Virus record (IMG/VR): IMGVR_UViG_3300022074_000054
Location: 1-54,241 of that record
Origin: a virus
Taxonomy: Duplodnaviria > Caudoviricetes
Length of the DNA stretch: 54,241 nt
Reading direction: 5' to 3' (one strand)
Shown here: piece after piece, positions 5,588 through 50,008 of the stretch
How positions within the stretch are numbered: position 1 is the stretch's first letter
Layout of the letters: each line of letters begins with the position of its first letter
Program-made: the position numbers and the translations under genes
The notes under the pieces: generated by a model
Database searches by the model: none
The model's input: only the letters and a program-made list of their open reading frames with translations
Told to the model about the DNA's origin: nothing

Positions 5588-6496
5588 ATGGCTATTTCAA
5601 GAAGTCAACTAGCGAAAGAGCTAGAACCCGGCCTTAACGCTTTGTTCGGGCTGGAATACAACCGTTATGAGAACGAGCATGGAGAAATCTTTGAAGAGGA
5701 GTCTTCGGACAGAGCCTTTGAAGAGGAAGTTATGCTCGGTGGTTTTTCTACGGCACCCGTAAAAGGTGAAGGCACTGCCATCAGCTTTGACGATGCACAA
5801 GAAACATACACTGCTCGTTACACACACGAAACCATTGCGCTGGCATTCTCAATCACTGAGGAAGCAATTGAAGACAATCTGTATGATCGTCTTGCATCGC
5901 GCTACACCAAGGCATTGGCTCGTTCAATGGCTCAAACCAAGCAGATCAAAGCTGCCGCTATCCTGAACAATGCGTTCACAGCGGGTGCTTCTGCAATTGG
6001 TGACGGTGCAGCACTGTGTTCAAACGCGCACCCAAGCTTGTCTGGTAACCAGAGCAACCTTCTCGCCACAGCGGCTGACCTCAACGAAACTTCGCTTGAG
6101 CAGATGCTGATTGAGATTGCTGGTCTTACTGATGAGCGTGGTCTGAAAATCGCTGTACGCGGCATGAAGCTTATTATTCCTAAAGAGCTTCAGTTCATCG
6201 CAGAACGAGTTTTGAACTCAAACCTGCGTTCGGGCACTGCTGACAACGACAACAACGCCATGAAGAATATGGGTATGATTCCGGATGGAGCGGTGGTTAA
6301 CCACTTCCTGACTGACTCAGACGCATACTTCATCAAGACTGATGCGCCTAACGGCTTCAAATTCTTCAACCGTTCGCCAATTAAAACGGCAATGGAAGGT
6401 GACTTTGACACCGGCAACATGCGCTTCAAGGCTAGAGAACGTTACTCTTTCGGAGTATCGGACTGGCGTTCAGTTTTCGGTACACCCGGAGCGTAA
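5588..6496 (+). CDS. Major capsid protein (Mu gpT-like HK97 fold)
   Basis: MAISRSQLAKELEPGLNALFG N-terminus and KARERYSFG C-terminus; TAAGGAGG RBS; followed by a terminator. Confidence 0.9.
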   Translation: MAISRSQLAKELEPGLNALFGLEYNRYENEHGEIFEEESSDRAFEEEVMLGGFSTAPVKGEGTAISFDDAQETYTARYTHETIALAFSITEEAIEDNLYDRLASRYTKALARSMAQTKQIKAAAILNNAFTAGASAIGDGAALCSNAHPSLSGNQSNLLATAADLNETSLEQMLIEIAGLTDERGLKIAVRGMKLIIPKELQFIAERVLNSNLRSGTADNDNNAMKNMGMIPDGAVVNHFLTDSDAYFIKTDAPNGFKFFNRSPIKTAMEGDFDTGNMRFKARERYSFGVSDWRSVFGTPGA

Positions 6497-6584: not shown

Positions 6585-6659
6585 CGGTAATAATGTATCC
6601 TGTCAATATCCCTGACAGCCGTATGGTACGGCTGACATAACCCACGACAGGAGATACAT

Positions 6660-7121
6660 ATGGGTACTACAACTTTTTCCGGCCCTATTAAAGCTGGAAC
6701 CATCAAAGCAACCACGGGTACTTCCCTCGGTACAAACATCAAAAACACTGGTCAAGTCGTAATGGCGCAGACTTTTGCCGTCGATCTTTCTGGCGGTGCG
6801 GTAGCGGCTCAAGTTACGAATGTTGTTATTCCAGCAAACTCACAAATTATTGATTGTGTGATTGATGTAATCACCGCAGCAAACGCCTCTACCAACTTGA
6901 GTGTTGGTGATACGGTAGGCGGTGCAGCCACCATTCTAAACACTTTTGCAAGCGGAACCACCGCGGGTCGTAAGTATCCGACTACGGAAGCTGGCGGCAC
7001 CTTAGCGTGGGAAGACACAGGAACTGCGGACATTCGTTTGACCGTTACGGCTTCTGCGGCAACAAATGCTGGAGAAGTACGTTTTACTATCTTGTACCAG
7101 CAAAACAACAACCTCGCGTAA
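6660..7121 (+). CDS. Putative virion structural protein
   Basis: 153-aa Thr/Ala-rich beta-type protein, MGTTTFSGPIK start, follows the MCP. Confidence 0.65.
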   Translation: MGTTTFSGPIKAGTIKATTGTSLGTNIKNTGQVVMAQTFAVDLSGGAVAAQVTNVVIPANSQIIDCVIDVITAANASTNLSVGDTVGGAATILNTFASGTTAGRKYPTTEAGGTLAWEDTGTADIRLTVTASAATNAGEVRFTILYQQNNNLA

Positions 7122-38593: not shown

Positions 38594-38935
38594 ATGAAAA
38601 GAGAAGCATTACTTCACGCGGCAGAGAAACTTATCAACGGCCCGCGGGCCAAAGACTACGGGGACGCTTTGCATAACCATAAGCGGATTGCTGCCGGATG
38701 GAACGTAATCGTGGAGGGCGCTATGACAAGCCATGGCTTTCTAACGCCCGCACACGTCGCCTTGATGATGGACTGGGTTAAGACCAGCAGATTGGTGGAA
38801 AGCATTGACCACGAGGACTCGTGGATAGACAAAGCAGGGTACACGGCTCTGGGAACAGAATTTGTACACGAAACCAAATCATCGGGGAACACTAATGGCA
38901 AAACTACAAATGAGCATGTTCGCACCAAAAAGTGA
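38594..38935 (+). CDS. DUF6378-like phage protein
   Basis: LINGPRAKDYGD and DSWIDKAGY motifs. Confidence 0.75.
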   Translation: MKREALLHAAEKLINGPRAKDYGDALHNHKRIAAGWNVIVEGAMTSHGFLTPAHVALMMDWVKTSRLVESIDHEDSWIDKAGYTALGTEFVHETKSSGNTNGKTTNEHVRTKK

Positions 38936-40790
38936 GTGGATACCGCCGCTAGAACTGCCGGACATCACGTCAGCTAAAAAGATAGCCATCGACGTAGAAA
39001 CACGCGACCCGAACCTCAAATCAAACGGCCCCGGCTGGCCTACCGGTGACGGTGAGGTGGTGGGGTATGCCGTAGCCGTAGAAGATTGGTCGGGATACAT
39101 TCCTATCCGTCATTTTGGTGGGGGCAACCTTGATGAGAAGGTCGTCAACCGCTGGCTCAAAAAAGTATTTGAGTGTCCTGCCGATAAGATCATGCACAAC
39201 GCGCAGTATGACTTGGGCTGGATCAAAGCGATGGGCTTCCAAGTAAACGGGCGCATCATCGACACCATGGTCGTCGCGTCACTGCTGGACGAAAACCGTT
39301 TCAGCTACAGCCTGAACGCACTGGCCTACGACCATCTGGGCAAAGTTAAATCAGAGAAAGGTCTAGTGGAGGCGGCGCGGGAGTTCGGAGTCGATCCGAA
39401 AGCAGAAATGTGGAAGATGCCCGCCATGTACGTTGGACCGTATGCAGAGGGTGACGCTGAACTTACCCTCGAACTCTGGAATTACTTCTCCGTTCAACTT
39501 GGCAAAGAGGGCCTGTGGCCTATCGCTAACCTCGAACTTGACCTCCTCCCATGTCTCGTTGACATGACGATGCGGGGCGTTCGGGTAGATACGGATAAGG
39601 TCGAGCGAACTAGGGATAGCCTGCTCAAGCGGGAACGGGAAGTCGTGAAGGAGATCAAGCGCATCTGTGGCACTGATGTCGAAATCTGGGCTGCTCAGTC
39701 TCTCGCTAAAGCGTTCGATAAAGTCGGCGTCCACTACCCACGCACTGAAAAGGGCGCACCGTCGTTCACGAAACTCTTCCTCCAAGAGCATGAGCATCCC
39801 CTCGCGCAACTCGTCACCCAAGCTCGGAACCTGAACAAGACATCCGGCACTTTCATTAATACAATCATGAAACACTGCCACGCTGATGGTCGAATACATT
39901 CCCATATAAACCAAATCCGTTCCGACGATGGGGGCACGGTATCTGGACGTATCTCAATGTCCAACCCGAACCTTCAACAAATCCCGGCCCGCGACCCAGA
40001 ACTGGGACCAATGATTCGTTCGTTGTTTCTTCCAGAGGAAGGCGAACAATGGGCGGCCATTGACTTCTCGCAACAGGAACCGCGCATCTTGGTACATTAT
40101 GCGCATGTATACGGTAAAACGCGAGGCGTTGCATTGGAGGGCGCTAAAGAGTTTGTCGCTGCCTACAACGATAATCCCGACACCGACTTCCATACCATGG
40201 TGGCGGAGATGGCTAACATTCCGCGCAAGCAAGCCAAGACCATCAACCTCGGCATGATGTACGGCATGGGCGTAAACAAACTGTCCGAACAACTCGACGT
40301 GTCGGTCGAAGAAGCCAAGGGCCTGACCAAGCAATACCACGACCGCGTACCGTTCGTTAAAGGCTTGATGAACGGCGTCACCAACCGGCTGAACGAGAAA
40401 TCTTCTGGCGGCTCACTGCACTCGCTGCTGGGCCGTAAGTGCCGGTTCGATCTATGGGAGCCCGATACGTTTGCCATGAACAAGGCGCTGCCCTACCGGG
40501 AAGCCGTTGACGCCTATGGGCCCACGACCCGCCTCAAACGGGCCTACACCTACAAGGCGCTCAATCGGTTAATTCAAGCATCTGCTGCGGATATGACGAA
40601 AAAAGCGATGGTCGATCTATACAAGCAAGGCATCCTACCCATGCTTCAAATCCACGACGAAATAGCCATGTCCGTGAAAAACGTCGAGGAAGCAAACAAG
40701 GTGGCCAAGATTATGGAAACCGCGGTGCCGCTCGAAGTACCATCCAAATGCGACGTGGAGATAGGCCCGTCTTGGGGTGAGGCCAAGTGA
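38895..40790 (+). CDS. polA: DNA polymerase family A (3'-5' exonuclease plus polymerase)
   Basis: IDVET (ExoI), HNAQYD (ExoII), YAEGDA (ExoIII), DFSQQEPR (motif A), RKQAKTINLGMMYG (B), QIHDE (C). Confidence 0.95.
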   Translation: MAKLQMSMFAPKSEWIPPLELPDITSAKKIAIDVETRDPNLKSNGPGWPTGDGEVVGYAVAVEDWSGYIPIRHFGGGNLDEKVVNRWLKKVFECPADKIMHNAQYDLGWIKAMGFQVNGRIIDTMVVASLLDENRFSYSLNALAYDHLGKVKSEKGLVEAAREFGVDPKAEMWKMPAMYVGPYAEGDAELTLELWNYFSVQLGKEGLWPIANLELDLLPCLVDMTMRGVRVDTDKVERTRDSLLKREREVVKEIKRICGTDVEIWAAQSLAKAFDKVGVHYPRTEKGAPSFTKLFLQEHEHPLAQLVTQARNLNKTSGTFINTIMKHCHADGRIHSHINQIRSDDGGTVSGRISMSNPNLQQIPARDPELGPMIRSLFLPEEGEQWAAIDFSQQEPRILVHYAHVYGKTRGVALEGAKEFVAAYNDNPDTDFHTMVAEMANIPRKQAKTINLGMMYGMGVNKLSEQLDVSVEEAKGLTKQYHDRVPFVKGLMNGVTNRLNEKSSGGSLHSLLGRKCRFDLWEPDTFAMNKALPYREAVDAYGPTTRLKRAYTYKALNRLIQASAADMTKKAMVDLYKQGILPMLQIHDEIAMSVKNVEEANKVAKIMETAVPLEVPSKCDVEIGPSWGEAK

Positions 40791-41095
40791 TCCTCTAGCG
40801 GCGGCACAATGACCACGGCCCGCGTGTCAAGGTTCACGTAAGCCATGCGGATGTTAAACATCTTTTGAACGTCGCTGCGAGGGCGGTAAATGCGTGACGG
40901 TTTTGTACGGTTGGGGTTTACACGCCGACCGTCTTTTTTTGCATCAAACAAAAAAATGTCGCCCGAAGGCGACAGTGCGATGAAGTCTGCGGGACTTGGC
41001 TCTCCTATAGGTTTGAACACCCAATACCCCTGTCGAAATAAAAACTCCTCAAGGATCAGTTCACATATTTTTCCGTCGCGGTGTTTCTTGTGCAT
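40646..41095 (-). CDS. PD-(D/E)XK nuclease, Holliday-junction-resolvase-like
   Basis: GKICE...GYWVF...PADFIA...FLFDAK pattern; C-terminal extension overlaps the polA 3' end in antisense. Confidence 0.6.
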   Translation of the reverse strand: MHKKHRDGKICELILEEFLFRQGYWVFKPIGEPSPADFIALSPSGDIFLFDAKKDGRRVNPNRTKPSRIYRPRSDVQKMFNIRMAYVNLDTRAVVIVPPLEDHLASPQDGPISTSHLDGTSSGTAVSIILATLFASSTFFTDMAISSWI

Positions 41096-41206
41096 CCCAG
41101 ATCACAAACACTTTTCGGTTGCCCCACCACAATGTTGACAGGTTTTGGTTCAAAACCACGACACAATAGTTAATTTTTTATAAAATTATTCTTACACGGG
41201 TTTTTC

Positions 41207-41241
41207 TTGCATTGTTGTATATCTTCTTATATTATCCTAGA
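41207..41241 (+). promoter_or_regulatory. sigma70 promoter for the RHH gene
   Basis: TTGCAT-N17-TATTAT; degenerate operator-like boxes at 41224 and 41234. Confidence 0.6.
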
Positions 41242-41271
41242 TATATATTCGGGGGCACGAGGAAAAAATTA

Positions 41272-41463
41272 ATGGATACAACACGCTGGAAAAGCATTCT
41301 CGTCCCGCGAGAGGTGTACGAAGACATAAAAGAGCTTTCAAAAAAGGAAGGTCGAACCATTGGCGGGCAGCTACGGCTGGTTTTCGAATGGTACATGGAG
41401 ACTTCAAATGACAGAGGCGCAAGGGACAACGGGTCAGTTCCACAAAAATCTGATAAGAAATAA
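41272..41463 (+). CDS. Ribbon-helix-helix (Arc/CopG-like) DNA-binding protein
   Basis: WKSILVPREVYEDIKELSKKEGRTIGGQLRLVF: beta strand, helix, GRT turn, helix. Confidence 0.7.
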   Translation: MDTTRWKSILVPREVYEDIKELSKKEGRTIGGQLRLVFEWYMETSNDRGARDNGSVPQKSDKK

Positions 41464-41608
41464 ATGCCCGAAGTGTGAACAGACGCTCGAAGTTACAGGC
41501 AAAACCAACACCCAACTTTTTCGTAGGTGCAAGAACTGTCACCTGTCTATTGTCGATCCGCTCGACGGTGGCGAATACCCCGAAGATATTTGTGAAATAT
41601 GCGATTAA
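41408..41608 (+). CDS. Small zinc-finger protein
   Basis: GGAG RBS; CPKC, CKNC, CEIC motifs. Confidence 0.65.
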   Translation: MTEAQGTTGQFHKNLIRNKCPKCEQTLEVTGKTNTQLFRRCKNCHLSIVDPLDGGEYPEDICEICD

Positions 41609-41611
41609 GTG

Positions 41612-41641
41612 TTGCTTATCCCATACCATGCGGTCTATACT
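41612..41641 (+). promoter_or_regulatory. sigma70 promoter of the candidate sRNA
   Basis: TTGCTT-N18-TATACT; operator-like boxes at 41598-41605 and 41618-41625. Confidence 0.7.
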
Positions 41642-41647
41642 ACGCTT

Positions 41648-41717
41648 GAACATGGTAAGCATGTTCTCCGTAGTTGATGGCCCCAGTTCGGTTGCCCCCG
41701 GCTGGGGCCATTTTTTT
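41648..41717 (+). ncRNA. Candidate trans-acting antisense sRNA (~70 nt) targeting early-gene RBSs
   Basis: Intergenic; 5' hairpin GAACATG/CATGTTC, exposed TCCGTAGTTG, 10-bp stem ATGGCCCCAG/CTGGGGCCAT plus T7; complementary to six RBS regions. Confidence 0.75.
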
Positions 41718-41731
41718 AGTGAGGAAAAACT

Positions 41732-41947
41732 ATGGCTGATAAAATTTTCGTAAACGGGCTGCGCGTACAAAAACCACGCGACAATGCTCCCGACTTCGTT
41801 AAGGCAAACGTAAGCATAAATCGTGCCGAACTCATCCCGTGGCTCGAATCACAGACCGGTGAGTGGGTCAATGCGCAAGTGCTGGATAGCAAAAACAAAC
41901 CCGGCACGTGGTACGTCGAAGTTGATACGTGGGAAAAGGACAAGTAG
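41732..41947 (+). CDS. Small hypothetical protein (possible ssDNA-binding)
   Basis: GAGG RBS; KPRDNAPDFVKA and WYVEVDTW motifs. Confidence 0.7.
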   Translation: MADKIFVNGLRVQKPRDNAPDFVKANVSINRAELIPWLESQTGEWVNAQVLDSKNKPGTWYVEVDTWEKDK

Positions 41948-41949
41948 CC

Positions 41950-42120
41950 ATGGATGATCTAAACCTACGCGTGTCCGAAATCCCTTGGGTCTACGCCGTC
42001 AACCAAATCAACAAAGCCGTCACCGACTTCCAAGACCAACTGGAAAAAAGCGGTTCAGAAGAAGACCTTAAACGCAGCGCAGAAATTGAAAAGTGCTGGC
42101 AACGTATCATGCAAGGTTGA
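41950..42120 (+). CDS. Small hypothetical protein
   Basis: ATG 41950 directly after the previous stop; helical 56 aa. Confidence 0.6.
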   Translation: MDDLNLRVSEIPWVYAVNQINKAVTDFQDQLEKSGSEEDLKRSAEIEKCWQRIMQG

Positions 42121-42146
42121 CTTTTACCTATAAAATCCCATACACT
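42117..42146 (+). promoter_or_regulatory. sigma70 promoter with operator-like box
   Basis: TTGACT-N18-TACACT; ATCCCATA at 42135-42142. Confidence 0.7.
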
Positions 42147-42175
42147 ACTCCTTGTAACCCTACACGGAGAACGTT

Positions 42176-42520
42176 ATGAAAGACCTCATTACTATCGAAG
42201 AAGTGTGCCAAGTGGCACGAGTCAGCAAGCCAACCATCTACCGGAAGGTAAAGCTTGGCGAGTTTCCTGCCCCAGTCAAAGTACCAACAACCGCGACCCG
42301 CGGGCCAAAGATGGTCAACCGATGGGAAAAAGGCGCAGTCATAAACCATTGCATTCAAAACGTGCAGAAGGCAGCAACCGCCGCAGTCAATATCCCACCA
42401 GAAGACGTAGACGCCCACTGGCACACGGAACCCGAACCATGGTACGTGGAACACAAGTTTGTTCTCCAAGCCATGATTGGCGGGATGTTTGCAGCACTGG
42501 CCGTCTGGTTCTTTAAATGA
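42176..42520 (+). CDS. AlpA/excisionase-like HTH protein with C-terminal hydrophobic helix
   Basis: LITIEEVCQVARVSKPTIYRKVKLGEFPAPVK; C-terminal FVLQAMIGGMFAALAVWFF. Confidence 0.8.
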   Translation: MKDLITIEEVCQVARVSKPTIYRKVKLGEFPAPVKVPTTATRGPKMVNRWEKGAVINHCIQNVQKAATAAVNIPPEDVDAHWHTEPEPWYVEHKFVLQAMIGGMFAALAVWFFK

Positions 42521-42810
42521 CCGTAGACCTGAAAAAGAAATGGTGGGCATGGCACAAAGAAAACCCAGAGTTCTACGAGCTATTCAAAAAGTTCACCTTT
42601 CAAGCCATTCAGAAAGGACACCGTAACCTCTCCGCATGGCTCATCGTCAATCGCATCCGGTGGGAAACAATGATCGTTACCACCGGCGATGAATACAAAA
42701 TCTCCAACGACTACATCGCACTCTACGCTCGGCTGTTCATGCACGAGTTCCCAGACTACAAAGGGTTCTTCCGAACCAAACCCATGAAGCGCGTCCACAT
42801 CGACGAATAA
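42517..42810 (+). CDS. Conserved phage hypothetical protein
   Basis: ENPEFYELF, RIRWE, YKISNDYIALYARLF motifs. Confidence 0.75.
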   Translation: MTVDLKKKWWAWHKENPEFYELFKKFTFQAIQKGHRNLSAWLIVNRIRWETMIVTTGDEYKISNDYIALYARLFMHEFPDYKGFFRTKPMKRVHIDE

Positions 42811-42827
42811 CTTTTTAAAAAATTAGC

Positions 42828-42856
42828 TTGACACGTATGCGATAATATGCTAAAGT
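42828..42856 (+). promoter_or_regulatory. Strong sigma70 promoter with operator-like box
   Basis: TTGACA-N17-TAAAGT with extended TG; TATGCGAT at 42836-42843. Confidence 0.78.
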
Positions 42857-42944
42857 GCCTATATCAATCGGTTAACCCGGTCGATAGGGGGAGGGCAATT
42901 TCCCCCACGCTCTTTGACAATTTAATCAACTACGGAGAACTACG

Positions 42945-43214
42945 ATGAAGAAATTCACGTTCGAACCTTCCTATGACGCTAAAACGTTTGACAAGGAAAA
43001 CCCCAAAGAAATCGAACATCACTTCTACGGAAGCAACGCCTTTGAATGGTACACCGATGTCGATTTTCAAAAGGTCTACAACTGGTTCGCAAAGCAAGGA
43101 CACACGTTCAACATCCACTTCGTGCCCGTCCACGCTAAAGCCGACTACCAAATCGTCAACTACGTGCCACATAACGTGGACGCTCATTGGTTAGGTCAGT
43201 ACCACCCTAAGTGA
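42945..43214 (+). CDS. Early hypothetical protein
   Basis: 89 aa; own promoter, CAACTACGGAGAAC RBS and terminator. Confidence 0.78.
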   Translation: MKKFTFEPSYDAKTFDKENPKEIEHHFYGSNAFEWYTDVDFQKVYNWFAKQGHTFNIHFVPVHAKADYQIVNYVPHNVDAHWLGQYHPK

Positions 43215-43249: not shown

Positions 43250-43395
43250 ATGCGAGGAAGGTGACCCGCCCCCGACGTTTGATGCAGGGGTCATAACTCC
43301 CCCACTAGGAGTGAGCAAGGGCGGGCCGGGGGCCAGTATACAAGAAACACACGGGGCAGGTCGCGGGCCACGGGTCAAAGAAAGGAACGCTTCTA

Positions 43396-43626
43396 CATAT
43401 ATAGAAGCAAAATATAAAAATAAATTTTTTCGGTAAAATAGCCGTAACCGGTGTAACCGTGTAACCAGAGCAAGTAAAGCGTTGTTATATATAGAGATTT
43501 TTAGTTACATAAGTGAAAAACAAAAAAGTAACCGTACCTGAGTTTATGTAACCAGAAGGAGCAGGATTGCGTATAAGGGGGCTAAATGATTTTTTTATTT
43601 TTTTTTAATTTCTTGCCTATATATAC
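43396..43626. repeat. AT-rich non-coding region with GTAACC repeats (origin or pac candidate)
   Basis: GTAACC at 43444, 43453, 43461, 43528, 43548; inverted GTTAC at 43504; A/T tracts on both flanks. Confidence 0.6.
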
Positions 43627-43676: not shown

Positions 43677-44300
43677 ATGCCTAGTAAATCTGTTGCTCCG
43701 CCCCAGAAGAAAAGGGTGGGAAGACCGAAAGCAACTAAAGCGCAGCCGCTCACTCGAAGACAAGAACTGTTCGTGAAAGAACTGGTATCGAAGGACGGGC
43801 AGATCACTATGCGGGAGGCAGCCGTCAATGCTGGATACCCTGTTGGATCGGCGCACACTAGGGCGTATGAATTAACCAACCCAAACATAAGCCCGCATGT
43901 TGTAGCGGCAATACAAGCTTACCGTGCAGAACTGGATGAAAAGTTTGGGGTCAACTACCAACGCCATTTACGAGACCTACAAACCATTCGTGATATGGCA
44001 TTGAACAACGGTGCGTACAGCGCAGCCGTTCAAGCAGAGTACCGACGAGGGCAAGCGCAAGGTGACATCTATGTAAGTAAGAGTGAAATCCGGACAGGCA
44101 GCATCGACAGCATGAGCAAAGATGAAGTCTTGCGGGCACTCAAGGAGATTAAACAAAGCTATGCCCCGATCACTATCGACGTTACTCCCGAAGGAGAGAG
44201 CAATTCCCAAAACCGCGACAAAGCGCGAGGCCGACTTTTGGAGGCAGATGAAGACGGGGATGGAGAAGACTGGGAGGAACTTGAAGGCAACACGGCTTGA
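43677..44300 (+). CDS. terS: Terminase small subunit
   Basis: LTRRQELFVKE...EAAVNAGY...AYEL...PHVVAAI pattern of the Terminase_2 HTH. Confidence 0.78.
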   Translation: MPSKSVAPPQKKRVGRPKATKAQPLTRRQELFVKELVSKDGQITMREAAVNAGYPVGSAHTRAYELTNPNISPHVVAAIQAYRAELDEKFGVNYQRHLRDLQTIRDMALNNGAYSAAVQAEYRRGQAQGDIYVSKSEIRTGSIDSMSKDEVLRALKEIKQSYAPITIDVTPEGESNSQNRDKARGRLLEADEDGDGEDWEELEGNTA

Positions 44301-44640: not shown

Positions 44641-44665
44641 TCAATAGAAAACTACGGAGGTTAAA

Positions 44666-44908
44666 GTGACAGTAATTGAAAAAGATCGGTTCGATGCGAG
44701 CCTGTATGACCAACGCCATGGCGGTCCGTTTGATCGCGGGGGTGCTGACTATTATTACGGGCGGAAATTTGAGCCGCACTACTACACTGGCGCGACGTAC
44801 AGCAGCGACAAAGTAGAAATGAAAGAGATGAGCGCGGAAGAAATCGCCGCGTACACTCGCGGGTATAACGCTGCCGAAGAAGATGGCACACAAAAAGACT
44901 GGGGGTAA
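44666..44908 (+). CDS. Early hypothetical protein
   Basis: GTG start after AACTACGGAGG; HGGPFDRGGADYYYGR and AYTRGY motifs. Confidence 0.78.
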   Translation: MTVIEKDRFDASLYDQRHGGPFDRGGADYYYGRKFEPHYYTGATYSSDKVEMKEMSAEEIAAYTRGYNAAEEDGTQKDWG

Positions 44909-45070: not shown

Positions 45071-45088
45071 CAACTACGGGGGCAAACC

Positions 45089-45802
45089 ATGTTGAAAACT
45101 GTTGAATTGAGTAGAGCCGAAAAAACTAAGGGTATCGCAGTAACCTACCGCGCTGGCGACGGGGAAAAATATGCGACATGTCCGGCAGCTTGCAAAATGA
45201 ATTGCAGCGGGAAGGGATCGCGCAAGATTGATCCGGATTATCTGGACGCACTTCTGGACGCTGTTCCGCGTAAAGGTGTTTCTTTTACCTACTCGCATTT
45301 TGATCCGCGCCAATATGGCTGGGACCGAAAGCTGGCGGAAGGTAAAACCGTTATAAATTTCTCGACCGAAAACAAAGCCGCCGCAGCCGCGTCCATTATT
45401 AATGGCGTCCCGTCGGTTACTGTTGTTTCGGATGAAAGCTGGCAGGGTAAGAAAACCCAGCCCGCCGGGTGGGACGTGAAGGTAGTAAGATGCCCCGCCG
45501 AATACCGCGCCGGGTTTAGCTGCCGCGATTGTGGAAACGGTTTGCCATTGTGCGCACGTCTTGATCGCAATTATGTGATCGGATTTACTGCGCACGGTGC
45601 GAGTAAGAAAAAAGCCGCCGATCCAGAAACCCGCGGCGGATGTTATGCCGACGGCGGAAACGTTGCATTGCATTGGCGCGATACATCAAACCAAGCCCAG
45701 CCGGATGAAACCGACGGCGAAAAGCTTTTGCGGTTTGCGAAGTCTTTACCGCCGCGCAGTATTATCCGGCACCATGTCGCGGGCGATATCGGGCTTGAAT
45801 AA
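45089..45802 (+). CDS. Cys-rich GP88/DUF7227-like protein (radical-SAM-related fold suspected)
   Basis: TCPAAC, FTYSH, INFS, RCPA, SCRDC..LC, IGFTAHG, GCYA, RHHVAGD motifs. Confidence 0.65.
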   Translation: MLKTVELSRAEKTKGIAVTYRAGDGEKYATCPAACKMNCSGKGSRKIDPDYLDALLDAVPRKGVSFTYSHFDPRQYGWDRKLAEGKTVINFSTENKAAAAASIINGVPSVTVVSDESWQGKKTQPAGWDVKVVRCPAEYRAGFSCRDCGNGLPLCARLDRNYVIGFTAHGASKKKAADPETRGGCYADGGNVALHWRDTSNQAQPDETDGEKLLRFAKSLPPRSIIRHHVAGDIGLE

Positions 45803-45819
45803 CTTTTCAAAATATTAGC

Positions 45820-45850
45820 TTGCGCTATATATAACTTTATGCGATATTAT
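45820..45850 (+). promoter_or_regulatory. Promoter with operator-like box
   Basis: TTGCGC at 45820; TATGCGAT at 45838-45845 overlaps the -10 region; upstream AT tract nearly duplicates 42805-42830. Confidence 0.6.
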
Positions 45851-45902
45851 GGGGGACGGGAGCAATTCCGCCCCCGTTTTTGTTTTTACGGAGAACAATA
45901 TT

Positions 45903-47093
45903 ATGACTTATCAAACTAACGCCTTCGCGCATGGCATCGGAAACAGCGCAGTAAGTAGCCAATGGTTTAGCCGTCCAGACGATCAAAAGTTTTTATCGTT
46001 GGATAACATGCTGGCCTTTAAAAAGAGCGACGCCCAGCGGATGACAAGCCGCACGGTTGACACTCACAAAATCCAGATTGTTGGCGAGTTCGACGAAGCA
46101 AACCCAAGCCGCGGCGATTTGAGAATTGAATATGCCGACGATAATAACCGGGACCACGTGAACACCCCAACCAATTGGAGTTTTGGCCAATTGTCCCAAC
46201 TATCGGGAGCGCCTGCCGGATACCTTAAAGACTTGCCCGCACCATTGGCGGCGGACTGTATCCAATGGGGTTTGCGTTATAACCGTGGCCGCGAACTGGT
46301 GAAGGTATACGGAAGCCAATCCGACGGCGGCGACCTACGTGCGGCGACGGGTCCAGACTATGGCCGGATTTTTGACTGGGAAATATTAGAGCCGGTTAAG
46401 AACCTAGTGGACGCCAGCGGCGGACGCTGGAAAGTGCCGGGCATGATGACGGGAAGCCGCGACGGTTTAGCCGTTTACGATCCCGACGTGCCAGTAACAA
46501 TGGAAACGACCACGCTATTCGCCAGCGACCGCGACGTTTTCGTTTTCTTAGTTGACGACCGCAACCCTATCGAAGTCGGTAAGCTGCCGAACGGCGAACC
46601 CGATTTAATGTTCCGCGGGTTTTACGCTTGGAACAGTGAAACCGGTAGCAAGACGGCGGGCATTGCCGCGATGTATCTGCGCGGGGTTTGCATGAATCGC
46701 AACCTATGGGGCGTGGAAAACTTCCAAGAAATTAAGATTAGGCACACCAAATTCGCGCCGGATCGTTTCGCGATGGAAGCCCGTCCAGCATTGGAAAGCT
46801 TTGCGCATGGATCAACCGCGACATTTGTCGAAGGTGTTCAAGCTGCCAAAGCTGCCAAGATTGCGCACGATGATGAAAGCCGCTTAGAGTTTTTAAGCAA
46901 GCGGGCCGGATTATCTGGACGCATGGCAAAAGCTGCAAACGCCCGACACTTGAAAGAAGAAGGCCGCCCAGTCGAAACGGTATGGGATGCCGCGCAAGCT
47001 ATCACCGCAATAGCGCGAGACATTCCCCACCAAGACGCCCGCATTGAAGTCGAGCGAAAAGCCGGTGCGCTGCTGGATAAGGTGGCCGCGTAA
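45903..47093 (+). CDS. DUF932-family protein
   Basis: Start re-assigned to ATG 45903 after TACGGAGAAC; WSFGQL, ASDRDVFVFL, WNSETGS, LRGVCMNRNLWG motifs. Confidence 0.8.
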   Translation: MTYQTNAFAHGIGNSAVSSQWFSRPDDQKFLSLDNMLAFKKSDAQRMTSRTVDTHKIQIVGEFDEANPSRGDLRIEYADDNNRDHVNTPTNWSFGQLSQLSGAPAGYLKDLPAPLAADCIQWGLRYNRGRELVKVYGSQSDGGDLRAATGPDYGRIFDWEILEPVKNLVDASGGRWKVPGMMTGSRDGLAVYDPDVPVTMETTTLFASDRDVFVFLVDDRNPIEVGKLPNGEPDLMFRGFYAWNSETGSKTAGIAAMYLRGVCMNRNLWGVENFQEIKIRHTKFAPDRFAMEARPALESFAHGSTATFVEGVQAAKAAKIAHDDESRLEFLSKRAGLSGRMAKAANARHLKEEGRPVETVWDAAQAITAIARDIPHQDARIEVERKAGALLDKVAA

Positions 47094-47319: not shown

Positions 47320-47327
47320 ATTGGGGA

Positions 47328-47357
47328 TTTACTTTTTCAAAAGTTATCGCATATAAT
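47328..47357 (+). promoter_or_regulatory. sigma70 promoter with operator-like box
   Basis: TTTACT-N18-TATAAT; ATCGCATA at 47346-47353. Confidence 0.7.
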
Positions 47358-47404
47358 CACATACGCGGGGGCAATAAAGCCGCCGCAACTACGGAGTAAA
47401 TAAA

Positions 47405-47821
47405 ATGGAAAATGTACACACTTTAAATATACGCCCGTCCGATATCTTATTGGATCGGGTTTTTAATCCAGCGCAAGATGCGGACATTGGCGGGGCAACG
47501 CCAAAGCAATTGGCGGAAGCTTGCGGGATCATTCCCGACTTCTTTTGCCAAGCTTGTATCGAAGCGGGTGACGCCCTAACGTTGGACGCCATCGCGGCTG
47601 GTATGGATAACGCCTACCAGTTCGGCGGTTTCTGTTATCCCTTCGGCGGTACTATTGACGATCACAACGGGACGTACCAAAGCGAACATGACGACGATCC
47701 AGCATTGCCACCGCTGGCGCGTTTCATCTTCGAAGGTTTCGAGTGTTTCGTTTATGAATACGGCATCGCCGCAATTCGTGACCGTGCAACCCGTGAAACT
47801 AAGATCGCGAGGTTTGATTGA
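47405..47821 (+). CDS. Early hypothetical protein
   Basis: 138 aa after CAACTACGGAG RBS; DPALPPL, VYEYGI, ARFD motifs. Confidence 0.78.
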   Translation: MENVHTLNIRPSDILLDRVFNPAQDADIGGATPKQLAEACGIIPDFFCQACIEAGDALTLDAIAAGMDNAYQFGGFCYPFGGTIDDHNGTYQSEHDDDPALPPLARFIFEGFECFVYEYGIAAIRDRATRETKIARFD

Positions 47822-48544: not shown

Positions 48545-50008
48545 ATGAGTGCAGCGCAAAATACCTTGATCGAAGAGAAAAAACTGAAGCTTGAGCTTCG
48601 GCTTGCGCAGCTTGAAAAGAACGAGAAGTGCCGTGATGATTTTTTAACTTTCGTAAAAACAGTTTGGCCGGACTTCATCGCGGGTCGTCATCATAAAATC
48701 ATTGCAGAGAAGCTTGAAAGGGTGGCTAAGGGCGAATTGAAGCGTCTTATCATTAACATGGCACCTCGTCACACGAAGTCTGAGTTCGCATCCTTTTTGT
48801 TCCCGGCGTGGTTCATGGGCCGCGATCCGAAAAAGAAGATCATTCAGGCGACGCACACGACTGAGTTAGCGGTTAACTTTGGCCGTAAGACGAAGAATTT
48901 GATTGAGGCGGACGAGTTCAAGGAGATTTTTCCGGAGGTAAAGCTTGCGGCTGACAGTAAGGCGTCGGGTCGTTGGGACACGAACAAGGGTGGTATGTAC
49001 TACGCGGTTGGTGTGGGTTCTAACTTGGCGGGACGTGGTGGTGATTTGGTGATTATTGATGACCCGCATTCGGAGCAGACGGCGATGTCGAGTTCCGGGT
49101 TTGATGATGCGTGGGATTGGTACACGGGTGGTCCACGTCAGCGTTTGCAGCCGGGCGGCAGTATTGTTTTGGTTCAGACTAGGTGGTCTGAGAAGGACAT
49201 GACGGGTCAGTTATTACGTGCGATGGCCAAGGACCCGTTGGCGGATCAATGGGAAGTTGTGGAGTTGCCTGCTATTTTTGAGGATGGGACTCCGTGCTGG
49301 CCAGAATTTTGGAGTTTGGAAGATTTGACCGCGGTTAAGGCGTCGATTCCTCCGTCCAAGTGGAACGCTCAGTATCAGCAAAATCCTACGGGTGAAGAGA
49401 ATGCGATCATTCGTCGTGAGTGGTGGCGTGTTTGGGAGCCTGCGAAGATACCGCAGCTTGAGTATGTGATTCAGAGTTACGATACGGCGTTTAGTAAAAG
49501 GGAGACGGCGGATTATTCTGCGATTACGACGTGGGGTGTATTTTATCCGAACGAGGGTGGTTCGGGTCCCAACCTGATCCTATTGGACAGTAAAAAGGGA
49601 CGTTGGGATTTTCCTGAGTTAAAACAAGTTGCGCTTGAGAGTTACCAATTTTGGGAGCCTGATACGGTAATAGTGGAGGCCAAGGCTAGTGGTATGCCGT
49701 TGACCCACGAGCTACGGAACATGGGCATCCCGGTTGTAAACTTTACACCGAGTCGTGGTAACGATAAGGTGAGTCGAGTACACAGTGTGTCGCCATTGTT
49801 TGAAGCAGGGATGGTTTGGGCCCCCGATGAGACTTTTTCAGATGAATTAATTGAAGAGGTCGCGGCTTTTCCTAATGGAGAGCACGATGATTTGGTTGAT
49901 AGTATGACGCAGGCGCTTATGCGCTATAGACAAGGAAACTTTGTCCAGCTACCAACTGATGACTGGGAAGATGAAGAAAACCATGTTAAAGTGAAAATGT
50001 ATTATTAA
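48545..50008 (+). CDS. terL: Terminase large subunit
   Basis: MAPRHTKS Walker A, VIIDDP Walker B, VQTRW, YQQNP, SYDTA, HDDLVDS nuclease motifs. Confidence 0.95.
   Translation: MSAAQNTLIEEKKLKLELRLAQLEKNEKCRDDFLTFVKTVWPDFIAGRHHKIIAEKLERVAKGELKRLIINMAPRHTKSEFASFLFPAWFMGRDPKKKIIQATHTTELAVNFGRKTKNLIEADEFKEIFPEVKLAADSKASGRWDTNKGGMYYAVGVGSNLAGRGGDLVIIDDPHSEQTAMSSSGFDDAWDWYTGGPRQRLQPGGSIVLVQTRWSEKDMTGQLLRAMAKDPLADQWEVVELPAIFEDGTPCWPEFWSLEDLTAVKASIPPSKWNAQYQQNPTGEENAIIRREWWRVWEPAKIPQLEYVIQSYDTAFSKRETADYSAITTWGVFYPNEGGSGPNLILLDSKKGRWDFPELKQVALESYQFWEPDTVIVEAKASGMPLTHELRNMGIPVVNFTPSRGNDKVSRVHSVSPLFEAGMVWAPDETFSDELIEEVAAFPNGEHDDLVDSMTQALMRYRQGNFVQLPTDDWEDEENHVKVKMYY

Follow-up and report, generated by a model that had tools for sequence, protein, structure and literature searches.

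A predicted phage small RNA with a seed complementary to the ribosome sites of several separately promoted genes

To our knowledge, the small RNAs by which phages control their own genes have been described in only a few temperate coliphages, where every one of them acts on a single operon. The sar RNA of P22 and the OOP RNA of lambda are transcribed opposite a single target, to which they are fully complementary; the CI RNA of P4 causes premature transcription termination; and the c4 RNA of P1 and P7 pairs through loops and controls one operon (icd-ant) that lies just downstream on its own transcript. The bacterial 6C and mmgR-type small RNAs use a C-rich loop or unpaired stretch to pair with the G-rich ribosome sites of several mRNAs. 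The passages on c4 in one source describe a structured phage RNA that pairs in trans around a ribosome-binding site and blocks translation, with c4-type seeds and targets that differ together between related phages and give rise to heteroimmunity (PMC12197685). For T4, the pertinent part of another source has the RegA and RegB proteins acting on the initiation regions of many early mRNAs, with RegB cutting within GGAG (PMC3014915). Here we analyse a short element at positions 41648-41717 of an entire IMG/VR virus record (IMGVR_UViG_3300022074_000054; 54,241 bases, ~97% complete by estimate; hereafter "the window", meaning this whole stretch of DNA), which probably encodes a trans-acting, base-pairing phage small RNA that shuts off a set of genes tagged at their ribosome sites.

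Like c4, as that RNA is portrayed in the passages cited above, the product of this locus would be a phage-encoded structured RNA of ~70-80 nucleotides (nt) with co-varying seeds, known here from sequence. Unlike c4, it appears to be a free-standing gene with four to six separate units as predicted targets, which share an extended Shine-Dalgarno tag and would be addressed by a linear seed and one loop; nor does it match c4 in sequence or structure, since the Rfam C4 model gave no hit at its gathering score over the whole window and none at E <= 10 over 41560-41780. With RegB and RegA, as far as the cited part describes them, it would share the character of a phage-made factor for the joint shut-off of many early mRNAs, but those factors are proteins, whereas here an RNA would read a longer tag by base pairing, and there is no homology. 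As with sar, OOP and P4 CI, a small phage RNA is predicted to pair with the phage's own regulatory genes; unlike sar and OOP, it has short seeds and is encoded away from its targets, not on the strand opposite them, the RNA and the six target ribosome sites lying on the same strand in separate places, the sites 0.45-5.7 kb from the RNA. Its C-rich shape resembles that of 6C and suhB/mmgR, and the weak sub-threshold Rfam hits to these families (17.8 bits against a gathering score of 47, and 12.4 against 41) reflect this shape; those RNAs, however, are cellular, and their targets have no dedicated tag beyond the Shine-Dalgarno sequence. No Rfam 15 family at gathering score over the whole window matches the small RNA, and the best sub-threshold hits on 41560-41780 score 11.6-18.6 bits against thresholds of 39-50. 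A full-text literature search, with supplements and subscription journals outside its reach, returned no phage RNA aimed at several operons of its own phage through a ribosome-site tag common to them.

The small-RNA gene and its complements in the window

The preliminary description of this DNA had recognised a promoter, a 5' hairpin, an unpaired stretch and an intrinsic terminator at this locus, and all of them stand at the coordinates then assigned. The parts of the gene are as follows.

41612-41641, + strand: putative promoter, TTGCTT (41612-41617), 18-nt spacer, TATACT (41636-41641)
41648-41717, + strand: predicted small RNA of ~70 nt, from its fold and from covariance model R1 (86.5 bits)
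41648-41666, + strand: 5' hairpin of 7 bp, GAACATG/CATGTTC (arms 41648-41654 and 41660-41666)
41667-41675, + strand: unpaired seed of nine bases, UCCGUAGUU; complementarity spans 41663-41678
41676-41712, + strand: terminator stem, a 15-bp hairpin, with loop UUGCCC at 41692-41697
41711-41717, + strand: U7 tail (T7 in DNA), after the terminator stem
41598-41625, + strand: operator-like inverted repeat, TATGCGAT-N12-ATCCCATA, bracketing the -35 of the small-RNA promoter; recognised by sequence only

The 70-nt RNA folds at -35.3 kcal/mol (z = -5.12), a value that 0/200 shuffles equalled. Judged by its letters, the element is an independent transcription unit with its own promoter and intrinsic terminator, and it looks like a real small-RNA gene. 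The predicted RNA ends in a U7 tail; Hfq-dependent small RNAs bind that chaperone through such a terminator tail and a U-rich or ARN site. The operator-like repeat at the promoter becomes a perfect TGCGAT-N12-ATCGCA in several relatives. The word ATC(G/C)CATA or its complement TATGCGAT, stands at or beside the -10 of every promoter in the small-gene module that surrounds the RNA (41598-41625, 42135, 42836, 44622/44632, 45053, 45838, 47346 and 48448 in the window), and it might act as an operator or belong to an extended -10.

The unpaired seed is complementary to mRNAs encoded elsewhere in the module, at six ribosome sites that are listed here with net cofold energies.

42164-42172, + strand: target 1, ACGGAGAAC, ribosome site of the AlpA-like helix-turn-helix (HTH) gene 42176-42520; -2.5 kcal/mol, a weak candidate
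42925-42940, + strand: target 2, ATCAACTACGGAGAAC, a 16/16 complement over the Shine-Dalgarno sequence of gene 42945-43214 (89 amino acids, no family); -13.3 kcal/mol
44650-44659, + strand: target 3, AACTACGGAG, ribosome site of gene 44666-44908 (80 amino acids, GTG start); -5.7 kcal/mol
45071-45085, + strand: target 4, CAACTACGG overlapping CGGGGGCAA, ribosome site of the DUF7227 gene 45089-45802; -14.6 kcal/mol
45887-45897, + strand: target 5, TACGGAGAACA, ribosome site of the DUF932 gene 45903-47093; -11.4 kcal/mol
47386-47396, + strand: target 6, CAACTACGGAG, ribosome site of gene 47405-47821; -13.4 kcal/mol

As had been proposed, 41663-41678 is the exact reverse complement of 42925-42940 (16/16), 4 nt before the ATG at 42945, and the five shorter matches (42164-42172, 44650-44659, 45071-45079, 45887-45897 and 47386-47396) are exact. 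It is the placement of such matches that exceeds chance. Perfect complements of at least 9 nt to the RNA occur in 7/63 start regions, while shuffled RNAs match a mean of 0.32 and a maximum of 6 start regions, so that 0/2000 of them reach 7; the result holds with the anti-Shine-Dalgarno core CTCC kept fixed. The exact word ACTACGGAG has four copies in the window: three on the + strand, all of which immediately precede a start codon, and a fourth, on the - strand, that falls within the RNA. When one mismatch at most is allowed, there are 15 matches against 7.7 expected, which 3/100 shuffles reach and which is not significant alone. Among 64 start regions, sites of the ACGGAG type are found at the six named genes and 38387, together with ACGGGG at open reading frame (ORF) 1402, and the ribosome sites of the structural genes use AGGAG flanked by A/T, which bears out the earlier remark that the motif is absent from them. 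The possibility, raised at the same time, that the motif might be equally common elsewhere did not materialise, as its placement favours ribosome sites both in the window and in relatives.

The targets had also been said to lie behind promoters of their own, and a simple promoter scan places 5/6 of them behind a promoter-like site; 45903 lies behind TTGCGC...TATTAT, and terminators separate the target transcription units. Net cofold energies for 42945, 45089, 45903 and 47405 range from -11.4 to -14.6 kcal/mol, against -1.3 to -5.5 kcal/mol for nine unrelated start regions that served as controls, and we accordingly distinguish four strong predicted targets from two weaker predicted ones (44666 and 42176).

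Several of the target leaders have features of their own. The leader of 42176 is predicted to fold onto its own Shine-Dalgarno site, and within it (42140-42172) there is an anti-Shine-Dalgarno stretch, ACUCCUUGUA, that pairs with UACACGGAG; in one relative (L011, 6096-6140) the corresponding stretch of the AlpA-like leader is ACUCCGUA, the same word as the RNA seed, which may hint at the origin of the RNA. The DUF932 leader (45852-45886) has a GC-rich hairpin followed by GTTTTTGTTTTT, a terminator-like arrangement between promoter and ribosome site that recurs in L006, L013 and G001; since the -10 lies directly against the stem, transcripts may lack part of the 5' arm. An A/T-rich block, GAATAACTTTTTAAAAAATTAGCTTG, is found at 42805-42830, 45797-45822 and 47326-47351, just upstream of, and extending into, the -35 of three target promoters in the manner of an UP element, and there is an inverted copy at 41168-41191.

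Conservation and co-variation among related phages

Relatives of the phage were gathered by a polymerase search, which yielded 80 viral contigs, and the intergenic element was recognisable by BLAST in 17/80 of them. Across these relatives the -35 (TTGCWT) and the -10 are kept at 17-18-nt spacing, and in 16 of them the hairpin starts 4-7 nt after the -10, at the predicted transcript start. The sequence of the 5' hairpin varies widely while its pairing is maintained; the terminator loop and the unpaired CUCCGUAG, the latter within its clade, show hardly any change; and the small RNA is retained in relatives where the downstream gene differs. Covariance model R1 finds the element on the gene strand in 25/81 sources at E <= 0.01. 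A separate scan of IMG/VR with a seed+loop pattern gave 102 places, 80 of which were fetched for scoring with the model, and R1 fits 63/80 of these viral loci at E <= 1e-4.

The secondary structure of the element is conserved and is backed by compensatory changes. MAFFT alignments misplaced the divergent 5' hairpins, and model-guided alignments were used. With 19 sequences, 89.9% of cells are paired and double changes occur in 12/19 pairs, a covariation score that 0/500 shuffles reach; with the 29 distinct sequences that make up the 63 hits, 95.4% of cells are paired and double changes occur in 11/19 pairs, the score again being reached by 0/500 shuffles. Controls in which the structure was slid along the alignment have 32-51% of cells paired, against 90-95% for the actual structure (32-46% when it was slid by 1-3 columns in the 19-sequence alignment). 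In one sub-clade (L025, 9214-9281; L028, 12321-12400) the seed CUCCGUAG is carried in a hairpin loop (GUGC-UCCGUAG-GCAC), not between two hairpins, and the targets are still CTACGGAG.

The seed and its sites change together at the level of clades, in two to three seed classes, which is the outcome that the earlier proposal of seed/target co-variation called for. Counting unique sites, with duplicate contexts removed, we found that genomes with seed CUCCGUAG have 25 CTACGGAG (read CUACGGAG) at ribosome sites, with 0 CTACGGGA and 0 CTACGAAG; that genomes with seed UCCCGUAG have 22 CTACGGGA (read CUACGGGAG) at ribosome sites and 0 CTACGGAG; and that the only contig with seed CUUCGUAG, L013, has one CTACGAAG (CUACGAAG) at a ribosome site, no words of the other classes, and another site with a 15-bp duplex that includes two G.U pairs. 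Orthologous genes carry the word appropriate to their class, namely those for DUF932 and DUF7227 and the gene behind the "CTCTTTGAC" leader, and each seed switch is matched at several separate ribosome sites. In a seed-swap test over candidate start regions of 19 genomes, in which contiguous helices of 10 bp or more were scored if they held no more than one G.U, a genome's own seed formed 2.42 helices per genome, same-class seeds 2.16 and other-class seeds 0.61. The restriction to ribosome sites extends to two near-complete relatives: in one of 57,197 bases, 4/4 exact gene-strand copies of CTACGGAG coincide with the ribosome sites of promoter-proximal genes, all in the 8 kb that follow the RNA; in one of 53,827 bases 3/3 coincide with such sites; and in both the sole opposite-strand copy is the RNA itself. 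On the whole, the comparison of related phages largely supports the preliminary description in its reading of one RNA for a shared set of ribosome sites.

The terminator loop is a second complementary module, which that description did not contain. The loop and 3' side, UUGCCCCCG (41692-41700), are complementary to CGGGGGCAA, a word of which the + strand has three copies, one before ORF 1402, one at the 45089 ribosome site and one in the hairpin of the 47405 leader. The sites outside the ribosome-site list above are these.

42883-42902, + strand: leader hairpin of target 2, which presents GGGCAA (42893-42898), the complement of the terminator loop
47366-47374, + strand: loop complement CGGGGGCAA of target 6, in the leader of gene 47405
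1388-1398, + strand: CGGGGGCAACC, complementary over 11 nt to 41690-41700 and perhaps one more target of the loop module

The last of these lies directly 5' of ORF 1402-1857 (phrog_32327), which precedes the holin gene 1928-2329. In the leaders of 42945 and 47405 the loop complement precedes the seed complement, an order that fits antiparallel two-site binding. Among relatives, GGGCAA occurs within -60..+20 of the seed match in 9/16 targets whose RNA has the loop UUGCCC (~0.04 expected per interval of this kind) and in 0/27 targets whose RNA has a different loop; L020 has the loop CCCCCAG and, at the ribosome site of its DUF7227 orthologue, TGGGGGCAACC, an 11-nt match with a co-varying position. 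Across clades this association consists of one clade split and a single co-varying example, L020. The operon encoding a ribbon-helix-helix (RHH) protein (41272-41463) and a zinc-ribbon protein, just upstream of the RNA, has a leader that starts with (C)CGGGGGCA (41250-41257), a further complement of the terminator loop with its 3' side, and this start is kept in three relatives (L005, 2046; L006, 6485; L059, 5860).

Proposed action and competing explanations

Under the reading that we favour, host RNA polymerase would transcribe the RNA from its own sigma-70-type promoter, the promoters of the RNA and of its targets both being host-polymerase-like, and the transcript would open with a protective 5' hairpin and close at the intrinsic terminator. 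The unpaired seed, (C)UCCGUAGUU(GA), would pair with the extended Shine-Dalgarno motif (CA)ACUACGGAG. This motif appears to distinguish the opening gene in each of four to six short transcription units of the small-gene module, every unit having a promoter to itself. Because GGAG, the sole Shine-Dalgarno-like element before the start codon, is inside the duplex in every target, pairing should exclude the 30S subunit, and it would probably also expose the mRNAs to decay. For some targets, GGGCAA or CGGGGGCAA, placed in a leader hairpin or at the ribosome site, may pair with the loop UUGCCC(CCG), probably as a loop-loop (kissing) first contact that seed pairing would follow. On the simplest reading the RNA would be stable, and as it accumulated the tagged gene set would be shut off together; since the RNA and its sites change together across related phages, one RNA probably switches the set off. 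That the effect would be repression, as opposed to activation, and when it would set in, we infer; "early" timing, an early-to-late switch and a carrier-state role are likewise suggestions that such a repressor might accommodate.

Several observations weigh against this reading. Targets 44666 (-5.7 kcal/mol) and 42176 (-2.5 kcal/mol) rate within the range of the controls, and duplex energies over the whole genome are noisy, positions away from ribosome sites reaching -19 kcal/mol and only the 42925 site standing out by energy. The simple promoter scan misses the small-RNA promoter because its -35 matches only 3/6, and the next gene starts ~14 nt past the U-tract without a promoter of its own, so that the element is also a leader and a terminator in cis. 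The co-variation separates two or three clades but not single genomes: a same-class seed does as well as a genome's own, and few independent seed changes therefore underlie it. Several seed/target variants pair solely through G.U wobble, and in L011 no exact target follows the RNA over the next 3.5 kb, where the only candidate is a wobble site, CTATGGAG. A seed-swap matrix based on an energy threshold showed no discrimination, because GC-rich seeds hit everywhere, and the contiguous-helix test was substituted for it. Finally, the RNA-library data at hand (two metatranscriptome runs and two runs of unrecorded kind, all as assembled contigs) include one contig, from the marine metatranscriptome run X1, that spans 40800-42321, but such contigs give no ends, strand or level and may include DNA, and they therefore neither support nor contradict transcription. 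The contig differs from the window at 30 letters, and none of the 23 differences listed falls within 41573-41796, which holds the RNA and its promoter; with 23/30 listed, this is only a hint of constraint.

The same pairing might serve a different end, that of an immunity or exclusion determinant like c4 of P1/P7 or CI of P4, by which a phage that is resident in a carrier state, or the first to arrive, would silence early genes in later arrivals that share its seed class, the clade-specific seed/tag pairs then being immunity groups. Such a role would sit well with seed classes that are discrete and clade-specific and have matching tags, with the operator-like inverted repeat at the RNA's -35, which suggests a separately regulated promoter, and with the RHH and AlpA-like HTH proteins encoded beside the RNA. 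We nevertheless think it unlikely: no integrase, partition genes or CI-type repressor were found among the 44 ORFs scanned in the window, in keeping with the earlier characterisation of the phage as integrase-less; its closest cultured relatives by polymerase have no lysogeny annotation in the stretch examined; and in the genomes of 185,579 prokaryote species the seed+loop pattern gave 23 chance-like matches in scattered taxa, 0/23 of which fit the model, so that no prophage form was found with this pattern. A positive or neutral action on the leaders (nuclease protection, the opening of inhibitory leaders or the guiding of processing) would make use of the strong hairpins that several leaders hold, of the 42176 leader, which hides its own Shine-Dalgarno sequence, and of loop-loop contacts that could remodel leader hairpins, but the duplex covers the only Shine-Dalgarno-like element of every target, occupied sites therefore cannot bind 16S rRNA, and we consider such an action quite improbable.

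The remaining explanations dispense with pairing in trans. If the element worked in cis alone, terminating the RHH/zinc-ribbon operon and providing a leader for the gene after it, its complementarity would be functionless; its position suits this, given that the terminator ends the upstream operon and that the next gene follows closely with no promoter of its own. Yet the conserved promoter, the co-varying 5' hairpin, the invariant unpaired seed and the clade-level co-variation of seed and targets would all be left unexplained, and the RNA stays in relatives while the downstream gene differs, which makes a purely local function very improbable. It is hardly credible, in our view, that the motif acts in DNA or on the minus strand, either as a protein operator in both orientations or as the ribosome site of a minus-strand ORF (41662 down to 41237). 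Promoters do carry a different motif, ATCSCATA, in either orientation, and on the minus strand the motif is followed by an ATG and, in the window, a 141-codon open frame; but the asymmetry is strict, targets always being gene-strand ribosome sites and the single opposite copy always lying inside the RNA, the compensatory changes in the hairpins are of the RNA type, including G.U pairs, and the minus-strand ORF overlaps + strand genes. As a gene candidate in its own right the minus-strand frame was rejected, since its length runs from 1-141 codons over 37 loci without conservation, 8/37 have no start codon in the 22 nt examined after the motif, and it has no Pfam or PHROG match.

The phage, its gene map and what the locus may mean

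Nearly all genes of the window lie on the + strand, a single large helicase gene being on the minus strand. By family matches, the gene order comprises portal and head genes, tail-fibre and DNA-ejection proteins and a holin, and the surroundings of the RNA are arranged as follows.

38862-40790: family-A DNA polymerase, grouped with primase and helicase (family matches)
40.9-48.4 kb: small-gene module, between replication and packaging genes
48545-50008: terminase, after the small-gene module (family match)

Compared with the deposited phage collection in both near and distant mode, the DNA of the window matched nothing. By polymerase protein, the cultured phages closest to it are DSL-LC04 (57.8%) and, at ~50%, the Pelagibacter phages HTVC023P and HTVC027P. 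The covariance model scored no better than E = 0.57 in the 25.9 kb around the polymerase of phage DSL-LC04, and with that scan no cultured carrier of the small RNA was found. Elsewhere in the window, the Rfam Mu-gpT-DE RNA matches at 6610-6662 (+ strand; 66.8 bits, where 49 is the gathering score), with the major head protein gene 5588-6496 on one side and ORF 6660-7121 on the other, and an A/T-rich non-coding stretch at 43376-43624, with direct and inverted repeats of the ATATATAGA type, lies 5' of a small-terminase-like gene (43677-44300) and could be an origin or packaging site.

A broader reading, which we put forward as speculative and rather doubtful, is that these marine phages label a class of their genes with an "address tag" for an RNA to read. 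The tag would be an extended Shine-Dalgarno word, joined in one clade by a leader loop, and a dedicated RNA would read it via two contacts; on this view reader and tag have diversified into orthogonal classes (GGAG, GGGAG and GAAG) that would serve both early shut-off timing and mutual exclusion or immunity among co-occurring lytic lineages. If true, the address-tag system would be an RNA counterpart of T4 RegA/RegB plus P1/P7 heteroimmunity in one element.

For the reading that we regard as probable, a trans-acting RNA that shuts off its tagged genes, the comparison of relatives suggests that, in an abundant group of uncultured marine phages, a single RNA has an entire regulon of promoter-proximal genes. 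Over 60 members of the RNA family were found here, and Rfam does not contain it; its three seed classes with their matching tags are natural mutant sets. The locus offers a candidate protein-free mechanism for joint early-gene shut-off; its orthogonal seed/tag pairs could serve as compact translational switches; and its targets (DUF932, DUF7227, the AlpA-like HTH protein and three unknowns) are candidates for host-takeover or anti-defence functions that need tight dosing.

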